Shown here: positions 1 through 52,149 of the stretch, in pieces
Position numbering within the stretch: the first letter of the stretch is position 1
Layout of the letters: each line of letters begins with the position of its first letter
Assembly: GCA_903824855.1 (NCBI GenBank)
Contig: CAIJYI010000022.1
Coordinates: 1-58,123, forward strand
Reading direction: 5' to 3'
DNA: 58,123 bases
Source of the DNA: an uncultured bacterium
GTDB lineage: Bacteria; Patescibacteriota; Minisyncoccia; Phycocordibacterales; CAIJYI01
Notes under the pieces: model-generated
What the model saw: only the letters and a program-made list of their open reading frames with translations
Databases searched by the model: none
What the model was told of the DNA's origin: nothing
Program-made: the position numbers and the translations under genes

Positions 1-64
1 GCACTCTGGTTGCTTTCCAATATTCCTTTTTGTATCGCTCAAATATCTCGTTTTTTGTTGCCAT
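1..64 (-). CDS. Partial ORF, N-terminal 21 codons only (runs off window edge); function unknown
   Basis: ATG at 64..62 on minus strand, open to position 1: MATKNEIFERYKKEYWKATRV; no SD; too short to assign. Confidence 0.3.
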   Translation of the reverse strand, partial: MATKNEIFERYKKEYWKATRV

Positions 65-80
65 ATTCATATGACAACTA

Positions 81-145
81 CGGTAACCTATTTATGGGAT
101 ATCCGCTGGATGTTCGGTAACATTATTTATGGGTGATAACGCGGG
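81..145. repeat. Two imperfect ~30-bp direct repeats upstream of tRNA-Tyr
   Basis: cggtaacctatttatgggatatccgctgg (81-109) vs cggtaacattatttatgggtgataacgcggg (115-145). Confidence 0.6.
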
Positions 146-165
146 CTTTCTTTTTTAATATTTTC

Positions 166-174
166 TGGTATACT
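166..174 (+). promoter_or_regulatory. Extended -10 element (TGgTATACT) for tRNA-Tyr
   Basis: TGg at 166-168 and TATACT at 169-174, 15 nt upstream of the tRNA 5' end; no good -35. Confidence 0.45.
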
Positions 175-189
175 GTCTGAGTGTTCAAT

Positions 190-273
190 GCGTCGGTGGT
201 AGAGTGGTCTAATACACGAGACTGTAAATCTCGCGGCTTTACGCCTTCGTTGGTTCGAATCCAACCCGGCGCA
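190..273 (+). tRNA. tRNA-Tyr (anticodon GTA), long variable arm, no encoded CCA
   Basis: Acceptor gcgtcgg/ccggcgc (one G-U), anticodon loop ctGTAaa, long variable arm, T-loop ggttcgaatcc; followed by CAA, not CCA. Confidence 0.9.
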
Positions 274-280
274 CAATAAA

Positions 281-310
281 AAATCGGCCCTTACGGCCGA
301 TTTTTTGTTG
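281..310 (+). terminator. Intrinsic terminator of tRNA-Tyr
   Basis: aaatcggcc-cttac-ggccgattt hairpin followed by a T-run (301-306). Confidence 0.8.
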
Positions 311-370
311 TTCGTTGTCATCACATTCAGATAGCGATATACTTATTATGTATCAACTATTAATGATTTT

Positions 371-754
371 ATGAAAACAAAAACCGTATACCTTATAAGT
401 GTTGTGGTTTTTATATTAGGTGTTCTCATAGGTGCCATTATCGTTTCTGTTTATCGCACCGAAAATAATCTGATTACCGGCGGTCCGATTGCGTGTACTA
501 TGGAAGCAAAAATCTGTCCTGATGGTTCATCTGTCGGAAGATCAGGGCCGAATTGTGAATTCACTCAATGTCCGGAAATTAAGGTTAGTAATACAACAGA
601 TGGTAATAATGGGGGATCAGCGCAGAGCACCTCAACCATTCCCGGAAATCCGGGGGCAACCGCATGCTCTATGGAAGCACTTGCTTGTCCTGATGGTTCC
701 TTTGTAAGTCGTTCCGGCCCAAATTGCGAGTTCTCGGCTTGTCCCAAGAAATAA
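371..754 (+). CDS. Membrane-anchored protein with two copies of a 4-Cys module
   Basis: N-terminal TM helix; CTMEAKICPDGSSVGRSGPNCEFTQCP (nt 494-574) and CSMEALACPDGSFVSRSGPNCEFSACP (nt 665-745). Confidence 0.75.
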   Translation: MKTKTVYLISVVVFILGVLIGAIIVSVYRTENNLITGGPIACTMEAKICPDGSSVGRSGPNCEFTQCPEIKVSNTTDGNNGGSAQSTSTIPGNPGATACSMEALACPDGSFVSRSGPNCEFSACPKK

Positions 755-772
755 ATAATATTAAATAAAAAT

Positions 773-970
773 ATGGATAATGAAATTTTAGATTTGTTAA
801 AAAAAAATGATGAAAAATTGGAAAAAATATATATCTCCACTGAAAAGACGAGAAAATATTTTCTTTGGACAATGATATTAACGATTGCTCTCGTCGTATT
901 ACCTCTCCTTGGTCTTATTGTTGCAATCCCAAGTTTTCTTTCTAATTACTCATCGGTAACCGGATTGTAA
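773..970 (+). CDS. Small membrane protein, unknown function
   Basis: 65-aa ORF with a C-terminal hydrophobic helix (ILTIALVVLPLLGLIVAIPSF); followed by a terminator. Confidence 0.5.
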   Translation: MDNEILDLLKKNDEKLEKIYISTEKTRKYFLWTMILTIALVVLPLLGLIVAIPSFLSNYSSVTGL

Positions 971-997
971 AATTTTTTCTAGAATTATTTGCAAGGA

Positions 998-1031
998 AAT
1001 ATCAACATTTAATTACGGTTGATATTTTTTT
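998..1031 (+). terminator. Intrinsic terminator
   Basis: aatatcaac / gttgatatt 9-bp stem followed by a T-run. Confidence 0.7.
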
Positions 1032-1155
1032 GAATATTGAATTTATGCACAGGTAATTAAATCTTTTTTTCATATCTCGGTGTATAATAGTATTATAAAA
1101 ATAAAATATACCGCGTATCAATTTAGCTCATTTTTATTTTTTTAATAAACTTATC

Positions 1156-3183
1156 ATGCCAAAATCTCTCACCTTAGGGAACGGAAACATGCTCATTTGT
1201 TACGACAAATTTGGGCAAGTCAATGATCTCTATTTTCCTCAGGTTGGACTCGAAAATCATATCGGCAAAGATTCTCTCCACAGAATTGGCGTTTTTGTTG
1301 ATGGAAGAATGAGTTGGATTTCTGATTCGGGATGGCATATTGAATTTACAACACCGTCAAATACTCACATGGCGGTCATATCTGCTAAGAATCAAAATCT
1401 TGGTGTAACATTGACCTTTAATGATGTTGTCTACAACGAACAGAATATTTTCATTCGCCGCGTGACGGTAAAAAACGATTTACCGAGAGTTCTGAACGTA
1501 AAATTATATTTCTGTCAGGAATGGAATATCTATCAATCGGGAAGGCAAGACACGGGATATTATGATCCGGGAAGTAATTCGATTATTCATTATGAAGGAC
1601 GCCGTGTATTTCTGATAAATGGTCGCGTTGATAATCATGGAATAGATGATTACACCACCGGAATTTATCGAATGGAGGGAAAAGACGGAAGCTATATTGA
1701 TGCAGAGGACGGTATCCTTTCAAAGAATTCAATTGAGCACGGATTAACCGATTCCGTTGTAGGATTTCATCTTGAAATTAGTTCCGGGAGTGAAATAATT
1801 GTACATTATTGGGTCGGGGTTGGGAAAACTATTCCTGAAGTTTTTGATTTGAATAATTACGTTTTGGAAAAATCTCCCGAACACTTATTTCGGACGACAA
1901 AAGATTATTGGAGTGCGTGGGTTGATCGAGAAAATTTTAGTTATTACGGTCTCACAGACGATATGGTGAGCATGTTTAAGAAATCACTTTTTATAATGCG
2001 CTCGCACGTTGATTCAGGTGGAGCAGTAATTGCATCGGGCGATTCAGACATGCTTCAATATGGCCGCGATACCTATAGTTACATGTGGCCGAGGGACGGA
2101 GCTTTTGCCATTATGGCACTAGATCGTGCCGGCGATTCGTATGTTGCTCGAAAGTTTTTCACCTTTTGCAATCGTGTAATAACCGACGATGGTTTTTTCA
2201 TGCACAAATATCGTCCCGATGGCTCGCTCGGGAGTTCTTGGCATCCATGGGTAACAAAGTCCGGCGAATTTCAATTGCCGATTCAGGAAGATGAGACGGC
2301 TCTCGTTTTGTTTGCGCTTTGGGAACATTATAATCTCACAAAGGATCTTGAATTTATCGAAGAAATCTATAATTCTTTTATTCAGAAAGCTGCCAATTTC
2401 ATGGTCATCTATCGCGATAAAGAAACGAGATTGCCGAAACGAAGTTATGATCTTTGGGAAGAAAAACTAGGCGTTTCAACTTTCACCTGTGCTACCGTGT
2501 ATGGGGCGCTTCAATCAGCAGCATTCTTCTCGCAGCTTCTCGGAAAACATGATTCAGAGAAAAAATACCATGACGCAGCAAATGAAATAAAAGAAGGGAT
2601 AATGAAGTATCTATTTAATTCTGAAAGGGGTACTTTTCGGAAGCTTTTCAACCACGATAATGGAATTTTCACCTATGATGAAACGTTAGACATTTCTAGT
2701 GTTTATGGGGTTTTTCGTTTCGGAATTCTCCCCGCGAATGACGCTAAACTGAAGAAAGCATTTGGTATTGCCGAAGAGCGTCTTTTCTGTGCTAGATATT
2801 CGGGAGGAATTGCCAGATATGAAGGAGATAATTATTACAGAGCCGGTCACGATACTCCGGGAAATCCATGGTTTGTTTCCACACTCTGGCTAGTTCAATA
2901 TTATATTGCGCTTGCTGAAGATGAAAAAGATTTTGAGCGTGTAAAACCGTGGTTTGATTGGGTAAGTAAGATGGCATTGCCGACAGGGGTCCTTTCTGAA
3001 CAAATCAATCCTTACACAAGAGAGCAAATTTCTGCGGCACCGCTTACGTGGAGTCATTCAGAATATGTTTTAGCAGTAATTGCGTATATGGAAAAACTGG
3101 AACAGCTCGGCGTCATTACATCAAAAAGTCTAATTATGGAGAGAAATAAAGAGGTTGATAACGGGGAAACGCATATTGGCTAA
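1156..3183 (+). CDS. Glycoside hydrolase family 15 (glucoamylase / glucodextranase-like)
   Basis: 675 aa; GH15-type motifs (YMWPRDGAF, DLWEE, WSHSEY) and typical length. Confidence 0.85.
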   Translation: MPKSLTLGNGNMLICYDKFGQVNDLYFPQVGLENHIGKDSLHRIGVFVDGRMSWISDSGWHIEFTTPSNTHMAVISAKNQNLGVTLTFNDVVYNEQNIFIRRVTVKNDLPRVLNVKLYFCQEWNIYQSGRQDTGYYDPGSNSIIHYEGRRVFLINGRVDNHGIDDYTTGIYRMEGKDGSYIDAEDGILSKNSIEHGLTDSVVGFHLEISSGSEIIVHYWVGVGKTIPEVFDLNNYVLEKSPEHLFRTTKDYWSAWVDRENFSYYGLTDDMVSMFKKSLFIMRSHVDSGGAVIASGDSDMLQYGRDTYSYMWPRDGAFAIMALDRAGDSYVARKFFTFCNRVITDDGFFMHKYRPDGSLGSSWHPWVTKSGEFQLPIQEDETALVLFALWEHYNLTKDLEFIEEIYNSFIQKAANFMVIYRDKETRLPKRSYDLWEEKLGVSTFTCATVYGALQSAAFFSQLLGKHDSEKKYHDAANEIKEGIMKYLFNSERGTFRKLFNHDNGIFTYDETLDISSVYGVFRFGILPANDAKLKKAFGIAEERLFCARYSGGIARYEGDNYYRAGHDTPGNPWFVSTLWLVQYYIALAEDEKDFERVKPWFDWVSKMALPTGVLSEQINPYTREQISAAPLTWSHSEYVLAVIAYMEKLEQLGVITSKSLIMERNKEVDNGETHIG

Positions 3184-10455: not shown

Positions 10456-12774
10456 ATGACTAATCATGGAGACGCAAAAAAACGTCTAAAAATAGAGATA
10501 AAAGGCACTGTTCAGGGGGTTGGATTTCGACCTTTTGTCTGGCGCTTAGCAAATGAACTTGACGTAAAAGGCTGGGTAGTAAATGGGGTGCGTGGTGTGG
10601 TTATCGAGGCGGAAGCTTCAGAATCGACACTTTTGGAATTTCTAAGAAGACTTTCCGATGATGCACCCGTAGTTTCGAGTATTGAATCGAAGAAACATTT
10701 GTTTCTCCAGGACACAGTTTCCTACGAAACTTTTGATATTCGTGAGAGTGATGATGTGGGAGAAAAAACAGCATTGGTACTTCCTGACTTGGCAACTTGT
10801 CCGGAATGTCAAAGTGAAATTTTCAATCAAAAAAATCGTCGCTTCCGATATCCATTCACGAATTGTACGAACTGCGGACCACGATATTCAATTATCGAAA
10901 ATGTCCCGTATGATCGTCCAAATACAACAATGAAAGTTTTTCCAATGTGCCCCGATTGCAGGAAAGAATACAACGATCCTAGTAATCGTCGTTTCTATGC
11001 CCAACCGAATGCGTGTCCCGTTTGCGGACCTCATTTGGAATTATTGGATACTCTTGGATTATCTTTTGCCTCACACGATGACGCTTTGCAAGCTGCAGAA
11101 GATGTCATTCGAAGTGGTGGTACCGTTGCATTAAAAGGTTTGGGTGGTTTTCAATTACTCATTGACGCGACAGAAGAAACTGCGATTAAAAGATTAAGAG
11201 CAATGAAAGGCCGTCCGGGTGAAAAACCGTTCGCGGTTATGTATCCGAATCTTGAACTCATAAAAGCTCATTGCGAAGTCTCAGTCGAAGAGGAAAAAAT
11301 TCTTACTTCAATCGAATCTCCAATCGTGCTTTTAAAAAGAAGAGAAAATCCGAGAGATATAGAGAAACTTCCGCATGAATCAATTGCTCCCGATAGTAAA
11401 ATTATCGGAGTGATGCTTCCTTATACTCCACTACATCATTTACTGATGTCTGATTTAGGTTTTCCTGTTGTGGCTACCAGTGGTAACATTTCAGATGAAC
11501 CAATCATCACGGAGAATAATGAAGCAGTAGAAAAACTTGCTCACATTGCGGATGTTTTCCTTGTTCATAATCGTGGAATTGTTCGTCATGTCGACGACTC
11601 AATCGCGAGAGTGATAGACGGAAGGCCAATCATTTTGAGACGGGCACGGGGTTATGCTCCATTGCCAATCACAATAAAAAACGCATCGGATAAAAGTCCT
11701 TGCGTGGTTGCCTTCGGGCCTGACCTTAAAAATACGGGTGCCGTTTTAATTGGCGATAAAGTGTTTATGACACAACATATCGGCGACATGGAAACAGTAG
11801 CTTCGGAAAAAGCATTAATTCGTTCAATCAAAGACATAATAGCTTTTAGGGATAAAAAACCCGAAGCCGTCGTCTGTGATTTACATCCCAACTATGAGTC
11901 AACAAAAATGGCGGAAACTTTTGCATCGGAATTAAATATTCCTTTGCATCGAATCCAACATCATAAAGCGCATATTTTATCCGCGATGACTGAAAATGGC
12001 ATCATTGGTGAAAATGCACTCGGCGTGGCTTGGGATGGTACGGGTTATGGAGAAGACGATACAATATGGGGCGGAGAATTTTTCTGCGTCAATAAAACCG
12101 GATTGAAACGTCTTGCTCACTTTCGGACATTTGGATTGATTGGTGGCGACACAGCAGCTCGCGAGCCTAAACGCTCCGCGATTGCAATGCTATATGAAAT
12201 TTTTGGGAATGAAATTTTTAATTCCGAGAGATATTCATCAGTCGTCGCACTTTCAGAAAATGAAAGAAAATTATTTCCAAAAATGCTTGAGAACAAGGTG
12301 AACGTTTTCACTACATCAAGCGCAGGCAGATTATTTGATGCCATCGCATCAATATTGGATATTTGTCACTCTTCGGATTACGAAGGGCATGCTGCGATAT
12401 TACTCGAGCAAGCGATTGGAAAAACAGTTACCGATGAAAGCTACCAATTTCGATTTATGGAAAATGGCACGCTTGATTGGGAACCGATGATTCGTTCCAT
12501 TTTGAACGACTTCGAAGAAGGAATTCCTCGTTCAGTTATGTCGGCAAAATTTCACAATACGCTTGCAAAGGCGATTGTAAAGATTGCTGAATTATCAGAG
12601 GAGAAAAAAGTGGTCTTATCCGGCGGATGTTTTCAAAATAAATATTTGTTGGAACGGGTCATGAAGGAATTTGAGGGAACTGAAATAGAGGTTTTTACTC
12701 AAAACAAATTACCGATGAATGACGGGGGAATTGCCCTTGGTCAAATCACCGCATTTCTTATGAACACAAAATAA
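10456..12774 (+). CDS. hypF: [NiFe]-hydrogenase maturation carbamoyltransferase HypF
   Basis: 772 aa; acylphosphatase N-terminus (GTVQGVGFRPF), two CxxC-x18-CxxC zinc fingers, YrdC-like and Kae1-like domains. Confidence 0.92.
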   Translation: MTNHGDAKKRLKIEIKGTVQGVGFRPFVWRLANELDVKGWVVNGVRGVVIEAEASESTLLEFLRRLSDDAPVVSSIESKKHLFLQDTVSYETFDIRESDDVGEKTALVLPDLATCPECQSEIFNQKNRRFRYPFTNCTNCGPRYSIIENVPYDRPNTTMKVFPMCPDCRKEYNDPSNRRFYAQPNACPVCGPHLELLDTLGLSFASHDDALQAAEDVIRSGGTVALKGLGGFQLLIDATEETAIKRLRAMKGRPGEKPFAVMYPNLELIKAHCEVSVEEEKILTSIESPIVLLKRRENPRDIEKLPHESIAPDSKIIGVMLPYTPLHHLLMSDLGFPVVATSGNISDEPIITENNEAVEKLAHIADVFLVHNRGIVRHVDDSIARVIDGRPIILRRARGYAPLPITIKNASDKSPCVVAFGPDLKNTGAVLIGDKVFMTQHIGDMETVASEKALIRSIKDIIAFRDKKPEAVVCDLHPNYESTKMAETFASELNIPLHRIQHHKAHILSAMTENGIIGENALGVAWDGTGYGEDDTIWGGEFFCVNKTGLKRLAHFRTFGLIGGDTAAREPKRSAIAMLYEIFGNEIFNSERYSSVVALSENERKLFPKMLENKVNVFTTSSAGRLFDAIASILDICHSSDYEGHAAILLEQAIGKTVTDESYQFRFMENGTLDWEPMIRSILNDFEEGIPRSVMSAKFHNTLAKAIVKIAELSEEKKVVLSGGCFQNKYLLERVMKEFEGTEIEVFTQNKLPMNDGGIALGQITAFLMNTK

Positions 12775-12794
12775 ACCTAAAGGAGGTGATAATT

Positions 12795-13022
12795 ATGTGT
12801 TTAGGTGTACCCGGAAAAATTATTGAAATAACGGGGGTCGCACCATTTTGCACGGCCAAAGTTAGTTTTGGCGGGGCAGTTAAAAGCGGAATTTCGCTTA
12901 TGGCTTGCCCGGATGCAAAAGTGGACGATTATTGTTTAACTCACGCAGGCAGTGCACTTTCCGTCATTGACGAAGAAGCAGCAAACGAAATACTAGAATG
13001 GCTTCGTTGCTATGCCAAATAA
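12795..13022 (+). CDS. hypC: Hydrogenase maturation chaperone HypC
   Basis: MCLGVPGKI N-terminus (Cys2) when started at ATG 12795, 8 nt after aaggagg. Confidence 0.88.
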   Translation: MCLGVPGKIIEITGVAPFCTAKVSFGGAVKSGISLMACPDAKVDDYCLTHAGSALSVIDEEAANEILEWLRCYAK

Positions 13023-13034
13023 GAGGATTGGACC

Positions 13035-14162
13035 ATGAAATATGTTACAGAATTCCGCGACAAGGAAGTTGCGGAGGGGGTGATTTTAGAAATCAATAAA
13101 GTGGTTGCCGAAATCAAAAAAAATCCCAGAATAAAATTGCCGATTCGTTTGATGGAAATCTGCGGAGGGCAAACACATTCAATTCTTCAGTATGGTATAC
13201 ATTCGGCGCTTCCTAAAGAAGTGGAATTCGTCCACGGACCGGGATGTCCCGTTTGTGTTACTCCAATCGAAACCATTAACCTTGCTTTGGAACTCGCAAA
13301 ACAACCGAATGTGATTTTCACATCTTTCGGTGATATGTTGCGTGTTCCCGGTTCAGACGAAAATATGTTTGAAGCAAAAGCAAAGGGTGCTGATATCAGA
13401 TGGGTGTACGCACCAAGTGAAGCCGTCGAAATTGCAAAACAAAATCCTGATAAAGAAGTAGTATTCTTTGCCATCGGATTTGAAACAACTACATGGCCTA
13501 TTACTGAAGCCCTTTGTATTGCAGAAAGAGACAGTGTGAAAAACTTCTCGATTCTTCCAACAATGGTTCGCGTTCCTCCCGCACTTGAAGTAATTTTGAG
13601 TGATCCCGAATGTATTATCGACGGCATACTTGCCGCCGGTCACGTTTGCACGATTATGGGAACGGAAGAGTATGAACCACTTGTAGAAAAGTATAACGTG
13701 CCGATTGTTGTCACCGGATTTCAACCCATTGATATTCTAACCGGTGTGCTTCTAGCTCTACTACAAATTGAGGAAGGTCGTTCTGATGTTGAAAATGCTT
13801 ATGGATGGGTAGCAAATAGTGCGGGAAGTACCGTCGCTAAATCTCTCATCAATAAATTCTTCAAAATAGTCGACAGAAAATGGCGCGGTATCGGATTGAT
13901 ACCGAATAGCGGTTTTGGACTTCGCGATGAATATCTCAAATATGATGCAGAAATAAAATGGAAAAACATACACGCCCGCAAGGAACCTGAACCCAATAAA
14001 TATTGTGGTCTCGTTCTAACGGGGAAAATTAAACCTACAGAGTGTCCTTTCTACAAAAAGGAATGTTCGCAAGAACACCCAATTGGGGCACTTATGGTTT
14101 CCTCAGAGGGCGCGTGCGCGGCATACTTTTTGTACAACAAAGATACAGGAGAAAGTAAATGA
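13035..14162 (+). CDS. hypD: Hydrogenase maturation protein HypD
   Basis: 375 aa; CGGQTH and GPGCPVCV motifs. Confidence 0.92.
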   Translation: MKYVTEFRDKEVAEGVILEINKVVAEIKKNPRIKLPIRLMEICGGQTHSILQYGIHSALPKEVEFVHGPGCPVCVTPIETINLALELAKQPNVIFTSFGDMLRVPGSDENMFEAKAKGADIRWVYAPSEAVEIAKQNPDKEVVFFAIGFETTTWPITEALCIAERDSVKNFSILPTMVRVPPALEVILSDPECIIDGILAAGHVCTIMGTEEYEPLVEKYNVPIVVTGFQPIDILTGVLLALLQIEEGRSDVENAYGWVANSAGSTVAKSLINKFFKIVDRKWRGIGLIPNSGFGLRDEYLKYDAEIKWKNIHARKEPEPNKYCGLVLTGKIKPTECPFYKKECSQEHPIGALMVSSEGACAAYFLYNKDTGESK

Positions 14163-15202
14163 GTAATTTCAATTTACAATGCCCTGTGATGGGGTACAAA
14201 GATACGGATGTCGTCACAATGGCCCACGGTTCGGGTGGAGAAAGCATGCAACGGCTTATTGGTGAAATGTATGCAAATGCTTTTCCCAAATTACAAAAAG
14301 ATACCGATGCTGCTTGTTTACCTAATATCGGTGAAATGGCTTTTACCACAGATTCATTTGTGGTAGATCCAATTTTCTTTCCGGGTGGTGATATTGGTTC
14401 GCTTGCCGTACACGGTACGGTAAACGATATTGCGATGATGGGAGCTAGGCCAAAATTTATGAGTGTCGCGTTTATTATCGAGGAGGGCTTTCCTCTTAAA
14501 GATTTGAACACGATTGTTCATTCAATGGCAGACGCTGCAAAAAAAAGTAATATACAGATTGTAACCGGTGATACAAAAGTAGTCGGAAGAGGACAGGGAA
14601 ACGGAATATATATTAATACTTCAGCTGTCGGTAATCTAATGATTCATGATTGTAACCAACCTCAATATGTCGACGTTGGAGATAAGATAATTGTTTCAGG
14701 CGATATTGGGCGTCATGGTATGGCCATAATGTCGGTTCGTAACGGTTTAGAGTTAGATCCACCCATACTTTCCGATTCAGCGCCGTTAAACGCAATGGTT
14801 CTATCGATTTTGAACGATGATGTTTACCCATCTTGTATGCGAGATGCGACACGAGGTGGAGTTGCTGCGGTTTTGAATGAAATCGCGCGAACCGCACAAG
14901 TTCATATACGCATAGAAGAAGAAAAAGTTCCCGTTGATGAAAATGTTCGCGGTCTTGCCGAAATTCTTGGTCTTGATCCGTTGCACATTGCAAACGAAGG
15001 AAGATTTGTTCTTTTTGTAAAAGCGGAAGACGCTCTACGTACGGTAAAAATTCTCCAAACTTTTGAAGGCGGAGAAAAAGCTGCGATTATCGGCGAAGTG
15101 GCCGGTAAAAATAAAAATGGTTTGGTTACGGCCAAAACTTTACTCGGCTCAGAAAAACCGATACATATGCCCGCAGGAGAAATCTTGCCAAGGATATGTT
15201 AA
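14159..15202 (+). CDS. hypE: Hydrogenase maturation protein HypE
   Basis: 347 aa; PurM-like fold, C-terminal PRIC motif; ATGA overlap with hypD. Confidence 0.92.
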   Translation: MSNFNLQCPVMGYKDTDVVTMAHGSGGESMQRLIGEMYANAFPKLQKDTDAACLPNIGEMAFTTDSFVVDPIFFPGGDIGSLAVHGTVNDIAMMGARPKFMSVAFIIEEGFPLKDLNTIVHSMADAAKKSNIQIVTGDTKVVGRGQGNGIYINTSAVGNLMIHDCNQPQYVDVGDKIIVSGDIGRHGMAIMSVRNGLELDPPILSDSAPLNAMVLSILNDDVYPSCMRDATRGGVAAVLNEIARTAQVHIRIEEEKVPVDENVRGLAEILGLDPLHIANEGRFVLFVKAEDALRTVKILQTFEGGEKAAIIGEVAGKNKNGLVTAKTLLGSEKPIHMPAGEILPRIC

Positions 15203-21408: not shown

Positions 21409-21990
21409 ATGTTTGATATTGTAACTATAGTAAAAACTGCCGGATATTTTGGTATTGCAGCAATCATCTTTTCGGAGTCCGGACTTCTTGTCGGTTTTTT
21501 TCTTCCCGGAGACAGTCTGCTTTTTACCGCGGGGGTTATGGCAGCTGCCGGTATACTCAATATTTGGGTGCTCATACCTTTGGTATTTCTTTCTGCTGTG
21601 ATAGGTGATAACGTCGGCTTTTATATTGGTGAAAAAGCGGGGGAGAAACTTTTTGACAGAGAGGAATCTATTCTCTTCAAAAAATCAAATGTTTTAAAAG
21701 CAAAAGCTTTTTTTGAAAAACACGGAAATCGTTCGGTAATCCTCGCTCGTTTTATTCCCGTAGTAAGGACTTTTGTACCGATGTTCGCAGGTATCGGACA
21801 AATGAATCATTCTAAATTCTTTTTCTCAAACATCATAGGAGCTTCGCTTTGGGCAGCAGGACTCTCCTTTTTGGGTTACCTACTTGGATCAACGATAACG
21901 GATATAGACCGATACCTGCTTCCGATTATTGCGGTAATAATTGTTATTTCAGTTTTGCCCGTTATTAAGATGTGGTTTTCAAAAAAATAA
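21409..21990 (+). CDS. DedA-family (VTT/SNARE-associated) membrane protein
   Basis: 193 aa; SGLLVGFFLPGDSLLF and ILARFIPVVRTF motifs. Confidence 0.85.
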   Translation: MFDIVTIVKTAGYFGIAAIIFSESGLLVGFFLPGDSLLFTAGVMAAAGILNIWVLIPLVFLSAVIGDNVGFYIGEKAGEKLFDREESILFKKSNVLKAKAFFEKHGNRSVILARFIPVVRTFVPMFAGIGQMNHSKFFFSNIIGASLWAAGLSFLGYLLGSTITDIDRYLLPIIAVIIVISVLPVIKMWFSKK

Positions 21991-22020
21991 TACATCTTCT
22001 CATATATCGTATCGGCATTA

Positions 22021-22051
22021 AAAAACATCCGTCTTCGTGGCGGATGTTTTT
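22021..22051. terminator. Bidirectional terminator after dedA
   Basis: aaaaacatccg...cggatgttttt. Confidence 0.8.
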
Positions 22052-22099
22052 ATCTATGACGGCGACGCAAAAGGAATCGGTCACGGATAAATTTCGGGA

Positions 22100-22204
22100 C
22101 CTCCCAAAATTTTCCGCTACCCCGTCTTGCTTGCCCTTGCGAGGGCATGGCTCCGACCTTCGATTCCTCACGCAAGTGAAGCAGTTCACTTGCTTAGCTC
22201 CCGC
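22100..22204 (-). other. tRNA-linked hairpin element, copy A (candidate structured RNA)
   Basis: Minus strand: GCGGGAGCT (22204-22196), AA, GCAAGTGAA-CTGC-TTCACTTGC (22193-22172), GTGAGGA (22171-22165), then a GC-rich tail with a gccct-cgca-agggc hairpin. Confidence 0.5.
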
Positions 22205-22236
22205 AATATTGTTTTCCTGCAAGCTCGATTGTCAGG

Positions 22237-22264
22237 CAAAAAAATAACCCTGCCGATTACAGGG
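22237..22264 (-). terminator. Intrinsic terminator of tRNA-Trp
   Basis: Minus strand ccctg-taatcgg-caggg followed by ttattttttt. Confidence 0.55.
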
Positions 22265-22274
22265 AGTATTTCTG

Positions 22275-22345
22275 CGGGAGCTAGAGGAATCGAACCCCTG
22301 ATAGTGGTTTTGGAGACCACTGTTATACCATTTAACTAAGCTCCC
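22275..22345 (-). tRNA. tRNA-Trp (anticodon CCA), no encoded CCA end
   Basis: gggagct/agctccc acceptor, D-arm gtta/taac, anticodon loop ctCCAaa, T-loop ttcgatt; 71 nt. Confidence 0.9.
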
Positions 22346-22413
22346 AATGAAAAAAGTTTACCATAAAAAAGATTTGAACGCCATATCGATACCCGGATTT
22401 CATTTTCAGTAGT

Positions 22414-22442
22414 AATAAAAAATCCACCATTTTTTTGGTGGG
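22414..22442 (-). terminator. Intrinsic terminator of rpmG
   Basis: ccacca-(A6)-tggtgg followed by a T-run on the minus strand. Confidence 0.65.
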
Positions 22443-22455
22443 TTTTTTGAAGAGA

Positions 22456-22614
22456 TTATTTTTTTGCTTCTTTGTGAGCGGTATGCTTTCGGCAAACAGA
22501 ACAATGCTTGTTTGGGGTAAGCTTTTTCTCGGCACTCTTTTTATTTCGGGTCGTCATGTAATTGACGTTCTTGCATTTTCCGCAAGCGAGTTTTACCAGG
22601 TGATTTTGTGACAT
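22456..22614 (-). CDS. rpmG: 50S ribosomal protein L33 (below the ORF-track size cut-off)
   Basis: MSQNHLVKLACGKCKNVNYMTTRNKKSAEKKLTPNKHCSVCRKHTAHKEAKK; CxxC...CxxC and YxTxKNK pattern of L33. Confidence 0.85.
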   Translation of the reverse strand: MSQNHLVKLACGKCKNVNYMTTRNKKSAEKKLTPNKHCSVCRKHTAHKEAKK

Positions 22615-51801: not shown

Positions 51802-51874
51802 CCGCCCATAGCTCAGTTGGTAGAGCAGATCCCTCTTAAGGATAAGGTCGTAGGTTCGAACCCTACTGGGCGGA
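51802..51874 (+). tRNA. tRNA-Lys (anticodon CTT), no encoded CCA end
   Basis: ccgccca/tgggcgg acceptor, D-arm gctc/gagc, anticodon loop ctCTTaa, T-arm gtagg-ttcgaac-cctac; 73 nt. Confidence 0.9.
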
Positions 51875-51877
51875 CAA

Positions 51878-51906
51878 GAAAAAATGCCTTTGCGGAGGCA
51901 TTTTTT
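51878..51906. terminator. Terminator of tRNA-Lys (usable in both directions)
   Basis: aaaatgcct-ttgcgg-aggcatttt. Confidence 0.8.
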
Positions 51907-51912
51907 GTTGTT

Positions 51913-51965
51913 CGCCCACGCAAATGAACTGCTTCATTTGCGTGTGGGATGTGATGGGAACCGCG
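51913..51965 (+). other. tRNA-linked hairpin element, copy B-plus (after tRNA-Lys)
   Basis: CGCCCA (51913-18, matches tRNA-Lys 5' strand), CACGCAAATGAA-CTGC-TTCATTTGCGTG (51917-51944), then GTGTGGGAT. Confidence 0.5.
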
Positions 51966-51974
51966 CGGCTCGTT

Positions 51975-52037
51975 GCGACATGCTCAACATCTTCTCGTCC
52001 TCACGAAAGAGACGCAGGTCTCTTTCTTCCTGGGCGC
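51975..52037 (-). other. tRNA-linked hairpin element, copy B-minus (after tRNA-Leu)
   Basis: Minus strand: GCGCCCAGG (52037-29), AA, GAAAGAGAC-CTGC-GTCTCTTTC (52026-52005), GTGAGGA (52004-51998), ...CATGTCGC (51982-75). Confidence 0.5.
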
Positions 52038-52064: not shown

Positions 52065-52067
52065 TTG

Positions 52068-52149
52068 TGCCCAGGAGAGGACTCGAACCTCCAAGGATTG
52101 CTCCACTAGTTCCTAAGACTAGCGCGTATACCAATTCCGCCACCTGGGC
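52068..52149 (-). tRNA. tRNA-Leu (anticodon TAG), long variable arm, no encoded CCA end
   Basis: gcccagg/cctgggc acceptor, anticodon loop ctTAGga, long variable arm, T-loop ttcgagt; 82 nt. Confidence 0.9.

Follow-up and report, generated by a model that had tools for sequence, protein, structure and literature searches.

Why should the DNA trailing a bacterial transfer RNA (tRNA) gene match that particular tRNA? The question is raised by contig CAIJYI010000022.1 of an uncultured bacterium of the Candidate Phyla Radiation (CPR/Patescibacteria), whose whole analyzed stretch of 58 kb we call the window. An initial reading made from the letters of the window alone (the sequence-only reading) had noticed that the 3′ flank of tRNA-Trp, hereafter copy A, joins a short segment matching the tRNA to a hairpin with a CTGC loop, and that similar layouts follow tRNA-Leu and tRNA-Lys. 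We found that copy A is a partly decayed, recognizable member of a family of structured elements that lie behind many tRNA and transfer-messenger RNA (tmRNA) genes of CPR bacteria. The best answer to the question is that the flank matches each tRNA because its arms are copies derived from the target, and not because an RNA device has been tuned to bind the tRNA.

Copy A carries the end of tRNA-Trp in antisense, split by a hairpin

All features of copy A are given on the minus strand of the window, its reference strand. There, rpmG (22614-22456) is followed by tRNA-Trp (CCA; 22274-22345, called by ARAGORN and scored at 66.3 bits by the Rfam tRNA model) and by a terminator-like hairpin with a T-run (CCCTG-TAATCGG-CAGGG, 22238-22264), whose GC-rich stem (22264-22248) precedes TTATTTTTTT as in an intrinsic terminator. 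Between this terminator and copy A lies an atypical, non-palindromic stretch of 36 nt. Copy A opens with a proximal arm, a′ (TGCGGGAGCTA, 22195-22205), that is a perfect 11-nt complement of 22273-22283 and thus of tRNA nucleotides 65-73 plus two trailer bases, CA. Within it lies GCGGGAGCT (22204-22196), complementary to 22282-22274. The sequence-only reading had correctly placed the tRNA, the terminator, this 9-nt complement and the 9-bp CTGC hairpin, although the arm in fact extends to 11 nt.

The hairpin, P1, is a perfect 9-bp stem with a CUGC loop (GCAAGTGAA-CTGC-TTCACTTGC, 22172-22193), preceded by A and followed by GU, and sits between the complements of tRNA nucleotides 65 and 64. Beyond it, a second arm, t′ or anti-T (GAGGAATCGAA, 22159-22169), is a perfect 11-nt complement of 22284-22294; its GTGAGGAATCGAA complements the T loop and the 3′ strand of the T stem (nucleotides 54-64) and doubles as the 5′ strand of a further helix, P2. 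A repeat finder showed that 22273-22283 and 22284-22294 are contiguous in tRNA-Trp. Therefore, the last 22 nt of the tRNA (22294-22273), the template of both arms, are wholly copied in antisense, from the T loop through the 3′ strands of the T stem and acceptor stem to the discriminator G and then CA. A 25-nt insert, consisting of A, P1 and GU, splits this copy at the junction of T stem and acceptor stem. By our arithmetic, the chance of a split perfect 22-mer complement within ~200 nt is near 1e-9, and the common P1 pattern has two matches in the window versus 0.04 expected. The GTGAGGA..GA flank, previously taken for a motif of its own, turned out to be the antisense of the T arm.

Downstream of the arms lies an interior of the variable kind termed type 2 (22085-22158), delimited by motif scan, covariance-model match and fold. 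It consists of a GGUCGGAGCC-hairpin-CAAGAC module, then GGGGUAGCGGAA and a hairpin, and is closed on its 3′ side by GUGACC (P3/P4). GUGACC, the 3′ strand of helix P3, and CGAUUCCU, the 3′ strand of P2, together occupy 22072-22084 (repeat finder, consensus fold). CGAUUCCU is a sense copy of the 3′ half of the T loop and the 3′ strand of the T stem, and in the back-pairing of copy A positions 22161-22168 pair with 22072-22079, that is, CGATTCCT (22079-22072) folds onto AGGAATCG. Next to it, TTTTGCGTCGCCG (22057-22071) is a weak match to the acceptor 3′ strand, whose intact sense copy would read CTAGCTCCCGCA, and a perfect 11-bp terminator-like hairpin found by the repeat finder (22021-22051) closes the copy. 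The proximal arms of copy A are therefore perfect and its P1 and P2/P3 intact, while the distal acceptor copy has decayed. Folded alone, a 156-nt stretch of copy A reached -63.6 kcal/mol (z = -4.2), and the covariance model described below matched 22070-22195 with 50 bits (E = 2e-9).

Two open reading frames (ORFs) of 41 aa (22050-22175, minus strand) and 85 aa (21965-22222, minus strand) overlap copy A. A small-protein reading was rejected, without a protein homology search, because relatives differ by non-triplet lengths and by whole interior types; the view that this is an RNA or DNA element and not a gene thus stands. Copy A has no promoter of its own beyond one weak sigma-70-like match (CTGACA-16-AACAAT, 22235-22208), which is no better than chance.

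The element forms a family behind CPR tRNA and tmRNA genes

Related copies were recruited by two sequence patterns and one model, which may miss divergent or non-CPR relatives. Loci collected by the scans carry L-numbers, and genomes other than that of the window were covered as pieces of 8-15 kb. The collection scans and the covariance model together gave ~90 related copies, all in CPR/Patescibacteria-type assemblies. In GTDB species genomes, the pattern P1 plus GTGWGG, for which we estimate ~0.5 chance matches in 596 Gb, returned 42 loci. The 34 real ones all lie in CPR-type assemblies (Saccharibacteria, Nomurabacteria, Paceibacterota, Moranbacteria and Parcubacteria); a few carry the labels Bdellovibrionales or Oligoflexia, are syntenic with Moranbacteria loci and come from a collection in which some taxonomy labels of metagenome-assembled genomes (MAGs) are unreliable. 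Nearly all 34 copies lie directly behind a tRNA, with tmRNA upstream in L035 and L057. A metagenome scan with the core 18-mer TCGAATAGGGGTCGCGAA, which left P1 unconstrained, added 57 loci, ~47 of them real, behind tRNAs of 17 anticodon species. By our count, ~40% of the non-index tRNAs in the loci carry a copy.

The covariance model, built from twelve short copies, gave 51 non-overlapping matches (E < 0.01) in 320 kb, of which 38 fall within 160 nt 3′ of a tRNA or tmRNA on the same strand. Two further matches lie behind another copy, four at a contig edge and eight elsewhere, mostly in arrays, assembly gaps and orphan arrays; these positions add up to 52 because the Lys copy of the window, which overlaps the convergent Leu copy, was added back. 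Within the window, the model matches the Trp, Leu and Lys copies only. The adjacency to tRNA genes first described for these three copies accordingly extends to related genomes.

Eight genome-scan matches were discarded as one verrucomicrobial coding sequence, in which GAAAAGGAACTGCGTCTTTTGC forms no hairpin. A viral origin was likewise rejected, since a looser P1 pattern on viral contigs matched two phage coding-sequence families with no hairpin complementarity. False matches to the loose pattern comprise viral loci L001-L025 (the two phage coding sequences) and genome loci L031, L038, L044, L053, L055, L060 and L067 (the verrucomicrobial one), and matches to the P1 pattern need a complementarity check.

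A tRNA-trailing structured element of this kind is apparently undescribed, as the sequence-only reading had suspected and as far as Rfam 15 and the literature searched show. At the gathering threshold, Rfam 15 gave only tRNA and tmRNA matches; at E-values up to 1-10 nothing credible covered the elements of the window, L032 or L064, including models for RNase P, signal recognition particle RNA, 6S, tmRNA, T-box, Y RNA/YrlA, ribozymes, group II intron and omega/bridge-type RNAs. A full-text search of the literature found no description of the element. Clustering of the ORFs near copies revealed housekeeping synteny only and no recurrent partner gene.

A covarying core with a probable fold on the tRNA-sense strand

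A complete unit measures ~110-160 nt, the complete copies compared spanning 113-160 nt. It begins with a spacer, usually a terminator-like palindrome, and continues with the Watson-Crick complement of tRNA nucleotides 65-73 plus CA (reading UG-N73′, acceptor complement, complement of nucleotide 65), an unpaired A, the P1 hairpin with its CUGC loop and GU, and the T-stem/T-loop complement (nucleotides 54-64). A variable structured interior follows, often GGGGUCGCGAA-hairpin-UUUGUGACC, and the unit ends with a direct (sense) repeat of tRNA nucleotides 56-73 plus CA. The acceptor part of this distal repeat has been lost in about half of the copies, copy A among them; a repeat scoring at least 14 (about 14-21 nt) persists in 15 of the 27 copies with a known tRNA. 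Since the two target-derived ends pair, the unit folds as a three-way junction, closed by a stack that reproduces the T-stem/acceptor helix. In the complete copy L046 (Val), which folds with z = -9.4, an 11-bp closing stack is continuous with P2.

RNAalifold on 13 copies yielded four helices: P1; P2, in which the T-arm complement pairs with the T-arm sense copy; P3, GGUCG/UGACC with a fixed G.U pair; and P4, a variable hairpin. We counted covariation over 42 copies aligned to the covariance model, in an alignment that is itself fitted to the model. In these copies, 92.4% of cells were paired, against 71% in shuffles and 36-50% with slid partners. Both sides had changed in 29 of 32 pairs (18.4 in shuffles) and in 219 cells (60 in shuffles). 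P1 was paired in 98.9% of cells, with double changes in seven of its nine pairs. In a set of 39 copies whose selection took no account of P1, 37 have the CUGC loop, and the stems vary freely yet stay Watson-Crick; at the foot of P1 only the A before and the G after are conserved. These compensatory changes, which the sequence-only reading had noted between the Lys copy and copy A, thus hold for P1 and the core helices across the family.

The kinds of pairs set the parts of the element apart. In the P2-P4 core we counted 558 Watson-Crick, 104 G.U-type and 16 A.C-type pairs, whereas P1 had 364, 0 and 2, the arms against their own tRNA 599, 17 and 16, and the spacer palindromes 640, 9 and 6, respectively; the ungapped mismatch counts for arms, acceptor helix and spacers are crude where copies have indels. 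The richness of the core helices in G.U pairs points to a fold selected on the single strand of tRNA sense. In contrast, arms, P1 and spacers behave like DNA palindromes that were made by copying and then decayed at random.

The arms track, and probably derive from, the neighboring tRNA

The match of the arm to the adjacent tRNA, which the sequence-only reading had described for a 6-9-mer in three copies, is a property of the family. Of the 10 positions in the acceptor 10-mer, 8.1 match the element's own tRNA and 3.3 match tRNAs of other amino acids; a match of at least 8/10 was found in 19/34 own pairs versus 4/924 other pairs. Ten of 33 elements are complementary to their own tRNA at 21 of 21 positions.

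The sequence-only reading had taken the arm for a repeat of the tRNA's 5′ acceptor strand. Acceptor stems with G.U pairs distinguish such a repeat from a complement of the 3′ strand, and at no fewer than 10 of ~12 informative tRNA and tmRNA loci the arm is the Watson-Crick complement of the 3′ strand. These loci include tRNA-Asp, Val-tac, Val-gac (five loci), Trp (two), tmRNA and Leu-gag (L050); L052 is an exception and one Arg locus is ambiguous. By analogy with this test in the family, arm a′ of copy A is probably also a 3′-strand complement and not a 5′-strand copy. In the T stem of the window's tRNA-Trp, where the two can be told apart, the arm has GAGG, not GGGG, as a 3′-strand complement does. 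The G.U test also rules out a tandem duplicate of the tRNA gene in which the 5′ strand was copied.

Mismatches between arms and tRNAs show no wobble bias (17 G.U-type versus 16 A.C-type), which fits templating at the DNA level better than selected RNA pairing. The spacers share this lack of bias (9 versus 6). We measured 67 distinct tRNA-to-P1 intervals, each from the 3′ strand of the acceptor to arm a′, and 12 of them are palindromes with arms of 29-31 bp and at least 97% perfection (L028, L039, L042, L043, L049, L083, L084, L105, L106, L110, L122 and L128). Their sequences are unrelated, and their overall length is uniform at 61-65 nt, a possible sign that the process producing them obeys a length constraint or uses a ruler. 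Spacers are also unrelated among orthologous tRNA-Val(gac) loci whose tRNAs are 96-100% and flanking proteins 42-80% identical.

The tRNA genes of the window and of CPR loci L026-L066 do not encode CCA. In nearly all of them CA stands directly 3′ of the discriminator, followed by an A/G-rich trailer (window 274-276, 22272-22273, 51875-51877 and 52065-52066); the element arms copy this trailer CA too.

Cores are found with different arms, in arrays and in decay

The same core occurs with different targets. The interiors of L040 (tRNA-Val) and L032 (tRNA-Asp) are ~95% identical over ~85 nt, and their arms fit Val and Asp, respectively. Similarly, the copies at L056 Leu(caa) and L042 Trp have P1 and core in common; their differences fall precisely on those bases of P2, on either strand, that stem from the T loop. 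Conversely, orthologous tRNAs can carry different interior types (L040 versus L046), and tRNA-Glu has a copy in L046, L033 and L058 and none in L039, L040, L049 and L054. Tandem and decayed copies are seen in L026, L032, L042, L043, L046, L054 and L059, and truncated ones are also common. In L050, a Moranbacteria-type tRNA operon, a perfect 44-nt direct repeat made of the tRNA-Leu end and 24 nt of spacer flanks the core.

At L032, two near-identical copies bracket a 1.2-kb cargo with a promoter and a methyltransferase-like ORF. The locus (1-1660, minus strand) reads tRNA-Asp, an element, a second, 5′-truncated one, the cargo, and a near-identical third that ends in an Asp 3′-end copy. The cargo holds a consensus promoter (TTGACA-17-TATAAT), CAGTGCTT tandem repeats, an assembly gap and an ORF resembling S-adenosylmethionine (SAM)-dependent methyltransferases, and at the cassette borders a 35-nt sequence recurs with GTGCGCA at its end.

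In L036 (1-170) and L078 (620-970), two elements stand head to head around one spacer as a very long palindrome with no tRNA between them, an arrangement that could cause inversions and contig breaks. In L131 (1900-2050), L121 and L127, the upstream sequence is replaced up to the last 4-8 nt of the tRNA; the spacer and element of L131 correspond to those of L084 and L111 (tRNA-Lys). This junction may be the far end of an insertion at the extreme 3′ end of a tRNA. One Nomurabacteria MAG has identical elements at the ends of two of its contigs (L030 8-89 and L034 61-142). Upstream of the L034 copy there is no tRNA or Rfam gene, and the upstream 500 nt look highly structured with no Rfam match. 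L065 (250-660) is an orphan array of two to three elements whose distal copies read GATTCCCTCTGGGCGCACA; only a degenerate tRNA-like 3′ end lies upstream, where ARAGORN calls no tRNA.

The Lys and Leu copies and other features of the window

The window's other two copies share the 191-nt gap between the convergent tRNA-Lys (CTT; 51802-51875, plus strand) and tRNA-Leu (TAG; 52067-52149, minus strand), their respective templates, and each truncates the other. Both consist of the 5′ module only, and both confirm the earlier description of compensatory changes in their stems. The Leu copy (51992-52037, minus strand; 32.8 bits with the covariance model) reads GCGCCCAGG-AA-P1(GAAAGAGAC-CUGC-GUCUCUUUC)-GUGAGGACGAGAA, with P1 at 52005-52026; the start of its interior resembles the L051 element before the convergent Lys copy cuts it off. 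The Lys copy (51912-51951, plus strand; 31.7 bits) reads (U)CGCCCA-C-P1(GCAAAUGAA-CUGC-UUCAUUUGC)-GUGUGGGAUG, with P1 at 51920-51941. In both, terminator and arm form one long palindrome that reaches into the tRNA acceptor strand; with its terminator, the Lys copy makes a 23-nt, 91% palindrome extending into the 3′ end of tRNA-Lys.

The tRNA-Tyr of the window has no copy. Its terminator tail, TTTTTTGTTGTTCG, is the same 14-mer that stands before the Lys copy (275-320 and 51876-51918) and weakly mirrors the 3′ end of tRNA-Tyr, and it may mark an empty or eroded site. Downstream of tRNA-Tyr, an ORF (371-754) codes for a small protein that is membrane-anchored and repeats Cys-rich motifs of the C-P-D-G-S type.

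Around copy A (21409-22614), rpmG and tRNA-Trp are followed not by the usual secE-nusG but by copy A and a convergent gene for a DedA/VTT membrane protein. A search for the orthologous locus found no record of the L33 protein, and DedA homologues (71-73% identity) in other gene orders with no tRNA-Trp nearby; contigs with an identical DedA protein belong to near-identical strains. These strain-level relatives are identical save for one base. Elsewhere (10456-15202), ORFs resemble a HypF/HypD/HypE hydrogenase-maturation cluster among apparent housekeeping genes (uvrA, uvrB, mreB, murG, ftsW, mraY, tsaD and fmt), all named from N-terminal sequences.

A retargetable insertion element is the preferred explanation

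We infer that the family is mobile, and we tentatively prefer, at somewhat less than even confidence, to regard its members as insertion elements of CPR/Patescibacteria that are non-autonomous, can be retargeted and home to tRNA-like 3′ ends, those of tRNA and tmRNA genes. Under such a scheme the arms would not be a fixed part of the element; they would be made from the local target by templated copying of DNA, which would leave an inverted copy across the hairpin and a direct duplication of the target. Arms copied from the local target would account for the match to each tRNA. The core (P1 and P2-P4) would be the part that is propagated and selected, acting as a single strand folded in tRNA sense; in the simplest case this strand would be RNA carried by operon transcripts or by read-through from the tRNA. 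The enzyme that moves the element would be encoded outside it. It is possible, and we hold it with some reserve, that the family represents one of two novelties: a target-templated element that rebuilds both of its ends, inverted and direct, from any tRNA-like 3′ end behind which it lands and so retargets itself with no encoded guide or protein, or else a CPR-wide set of tRNA-partner RNAs, one per gene. The former would most likely arise by synthesis across hairpins, through copy-back or template switching and perhaps with RNA as an intermediate.

Several points weigh against a mobile element. No transposase, integrase or reverse transcriptase was found in or recurrently near the elements, as judged by ORF clustering and by the window's ORF list (N-terminal sequences only, no Pfam scan). 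No excised or empty-site pair was found within one population, the strain relatives of the window being identical. Genomes with only 42-80% identity in their proteins conserve the 5′ module as well as they do the tRNA, which a host-beneficial RNA would also predict, and an occupancy of ~40% of tRNAs would be a heavy load for streamlined genomes if the element were purely selfish. We know of no mechanism that would install two copies of the target, one inverted and one direct, and place a hairpin at a fixed site inside. Finally, the covariation counts come from a model-fitted alignment, and copies recruited by pattern under-sample the diversity of the family.

The alternative that survives best, though we consider it unlikely, is a family of host-beneficial RNAs that are transcribed together with the tRNA and released as stable three-way junctions. 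Their closing stack would copy the acceptor/T-stem helix and discriminator of the cognate tRNA, and they would serve in tRNA metabolism, for example by assisting in processing or quality control, by decoying factors that read the acceptor end, or by offering a binding platform through the conserved CUGC loop and the GGGGUCGCGAA/UUUGUGACC helix. The strong, strand-specific covariation and G.U bias of the core would be expected of such RNAs, as would the invariant loop and helix motifs, the very stable folds of complete copies, the preservation of the 5′ module in diverged genomes and its frequency among the non-index tRNAs of these small genomes. Moreover, the copies in L040, L050, L052, L063 and L066 lie inside tRNA operons with no terminator before them and must therefore be transcribed. 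However, about half of the copies, copy A among them, keep P1 and core intact but have a decayed acceptor copy at the distal end, and mismatches in the acceptor helix show little wobble bias (14 versus 9). Neither the several unrelated interior types, found even at orthologous tRNAs, nor the tandem, truncated, convergent and orphan copies suit a host RNA. Most copies, besides, stand behind a terminator with no evident promoter, and a molecule with no T loop or D loop would not be bound by the usual elbow-reading tRNA enzymes. The tRNA-like small RNA that the sequence-only reading had considered holds in a limited sense, in the acceptor/T-stem-like stack that closes complete copies, which have no D arm, anticodon arm or T loop. 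A mobile element with its own RNA as transmissible form or cofactor would fit both the insertion-element and the host-RNA readings.

The sequence-only reading had also proposed a role in cis, in which the 5′ module pairs with the 3′ third of the upstream tRNA in read-through transcripts; with the 3′ strand of the acceptor sequestered in this way, the maturation of such precursors would be controlled or marked. The sequestering helix is indeed predicted on thermodynamic grounds: in the minimum-energy fold of tRNA-Trp plus copy A (-117 kcal/mol, z = -5.7), the cloverleaf is disrupted and the last 22 nt of the tRNA pair with the 5′ antisense module, P1 forming a branch. The elements with full complementarity to their tRNA, and the many spacers that would lengthen the helix to more than 40 bp, are consistent with it as well. 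We nevertheless consider this role improbable. The arm mismatches, with their lack of wobble bias, reveal no selection for pairing at the RNA level; the conserved interior, the distal sense copy, the tandem arrays and the copies without a tRNA (L065, L078 and L034) are left unexplained; and for copies within operons the better pairing partner of the arm is the 3′ copy of the element itself (L050).

Scars of integrase-borne islands are about as improbable. On this account, the direct repeat would be the attR left by integration at the T loop/acceptor, and the attL-attR interval a remnant of deletion. The direct repeat of tRNA nucleotides 56-73 at the distal end, the targeting of tmRNA, the array in which the most intact copy adjoins the tRNA (L026), the replacement of the tRNA up to its last 4-8 nt in L131, L121 and L127, and the cargo of L032 would all follow. 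Units of 110-160 nt with no integrase inside or nearby would not; unrelated remnants would not share a covarying core, a fixed CUGC hairpin and an inverted target copy, nor would the same core be seen with arms for different tRNAs. A recombination footprint, another suggestion of the sequence-only reading, comes closest for the direct and inverted target copies and leaves the conserved, covarying core unexplained.

That there is no element at all, merely a bidirectional-terminator palindrome extended outward by replication template switching beside a conserved gene, has a negligible claim: perfect, wobble-free palindromes that differ between orthologous loci do occur, and the window's tRNA-Tyr terminator is weakly extended without an element, but copies without a palindromic spacer (L040, L050 and L065), a P1 with an invariant loop at a fixed position, the conserved interior motifs and the distal sense copy go unexplained, and the family-wide conservation of P1 and core already contradicts it. 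We leave only a very slim chance to explanations beyond these five.

The element differs from known systems

Genomic islands and integrative elements insert into the 3′ ends of tRNA and tmRNA genes through the att sites of tyrosine integrases, Prochlorococcus tycheposons being an example. The CPR element resembles them in its targets, in a distal repeat running from T loop to 3′ end, in tandem accumulation and in occasional cargo; the direct tRNA-end repeat that marks the far border of such islands is present in the family and decayed in copy A. It differs in its length, in its inverted target copy split by a conserved hairpin, in its covarying core and in serving many tRNAs with one core type. 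No integrase was found: no non-housekeeping ORF family recurs near the copies, and none is evident from the N-termini of the window's ORFs, for which no Pfam scan was made.

In integron attC sites and in the attP(+) hairpin of CTX phage, a folded single strand rebuilds a duplex recombination site. Like these, the CPR element has imperfect inverted repeats, a variable center, strand-specific structure with extrahelical features, and cassette-like arrays. Unlike these sites, it lacks RYYYAAC/GTTRRRY boxes, a dif-like XerCD site and an integron integrase/attI context; its ends, UG-N-acceptor and acceptor-N-CA, differ from copy to copy, as read directly, with no dedicated attC model run. Unlike both, its stem is copied from the neighboring tRNA and is not intrinsic.

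With miniature inverted-repeat transposable elements (MITEs), repetitive extragenic palindromic (REP) repeats and bacterial interspersed mosaic elements (BIMEs), the element shares being short, noncoding, non-autonomous, multicopy and hairpin-forming, and its decay and arrays; it duplicates its target as MITEs do. In contrast to those of MITEs, its terminal inverted repeats derive from the target and differ by copy, and its target, a tRNA-like 3′ end, is strict and its orientation fixed. No autonomous or parent transposon turned up in the 42 genome loci, the 57 metagenome loci or the viral scan. IS200/IS605-derived PATE and REP/RAYT repeats go with a TnpA(Y1)/RAYT gene and have a conserved tetranucleotide where their hairpin starts; next to P1, the CPR element conserves only the preceding A and the following G.

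The Mauriceville and Varkud mitochondrial retroplasmids of Neurospora have a tRNA-like 3′ end, gain tRNA sequences by template switching of their polymerase and integrate at tRNA genes through the hybrid copy. They are a precedent for the templated capture of tRNA ends, but they are kilobase-sized, encode a reverse transcriptase and belong to a eukaryotic organelle, whereas the CPR element has no linked reverse transcriptase and its arms include the trailer CA and spacer, not CCA. Retrons, too, have an adjacent reverse transcriptase; copy A is flanked by rpmG/tRNA-Trp and the DedA/VTT gene, and no ORF recurs beside the copies.

Class C group II introns insert after intrinsic terminators and read their target through pairing of exon- and intron-binding sites (EBS-IBS). 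The CPR element likewise stands just after a terminator hairpin and has two internal segments complementary to contiguous upstream sequence. It has none of the group II domains I-VI, catalytic domain V included, is too short at ~130 nt and duplicates its target, which intron insertion does not; no Intron_gpII or group-II-D1D4 match was found even at permissive E-values.

The tRNA-like noncoding RNAs (mascRNA, the viral tRNA-like structure (TLS) and bacterial YrlA) are closed by an acceptor/T-stem-like coaxial stack and adjoin, or are processed with, other RNAs, as is seen here. The CPR element, by contrast, has no T loop, D loop or anticodon arm and no match to YrlA or to the Rfam tRNA clan (CL00001), and neither ARAGORN nor the Rfam tRNA model calls any element a cloverleaf. 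Its termini are paired through the discriminator and beyond, and its acceptor varies with the neighboring gene. The consensus fold replaces the D and anticodon arms by a single hairpin, P1, and the T loop by a long helix. The stacking of acceptor on T stem that marks this clan is found in complete copies only (L046), copy A having lost its 3′ acceptor strand.

Implications for CPR genomes

The CPR/Patescibacteria make up a large share of bacterial diversity and have very small genomes. An unannotated, conserved element behind many of their tRNA and tmRNA genes points either to important RNA biology or to a very successful genomic parasite that specifies its target in an unusual manner. Rearrangements and assembly breaks in CPR MAGs are likely to be promoted by its long perfect palindromes and its inverted copies of tRNA ends. 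The element can be annotated with a covariance model, which should improve the annotation of CPR genomes, where tRNA pseudo-ends and contig-end artefacts arise, and would avoid false small ORFs such as the 41-aa frame over copy A. If the set of tRNA-partner RNAs is real, it would reveal a hitherto unknown step of tRNA/tmRNA biology in reduced bacteria. If, instead, target-derived arms around a constant core prove true, they would represent a new principle by which mobile elements choose their targets.

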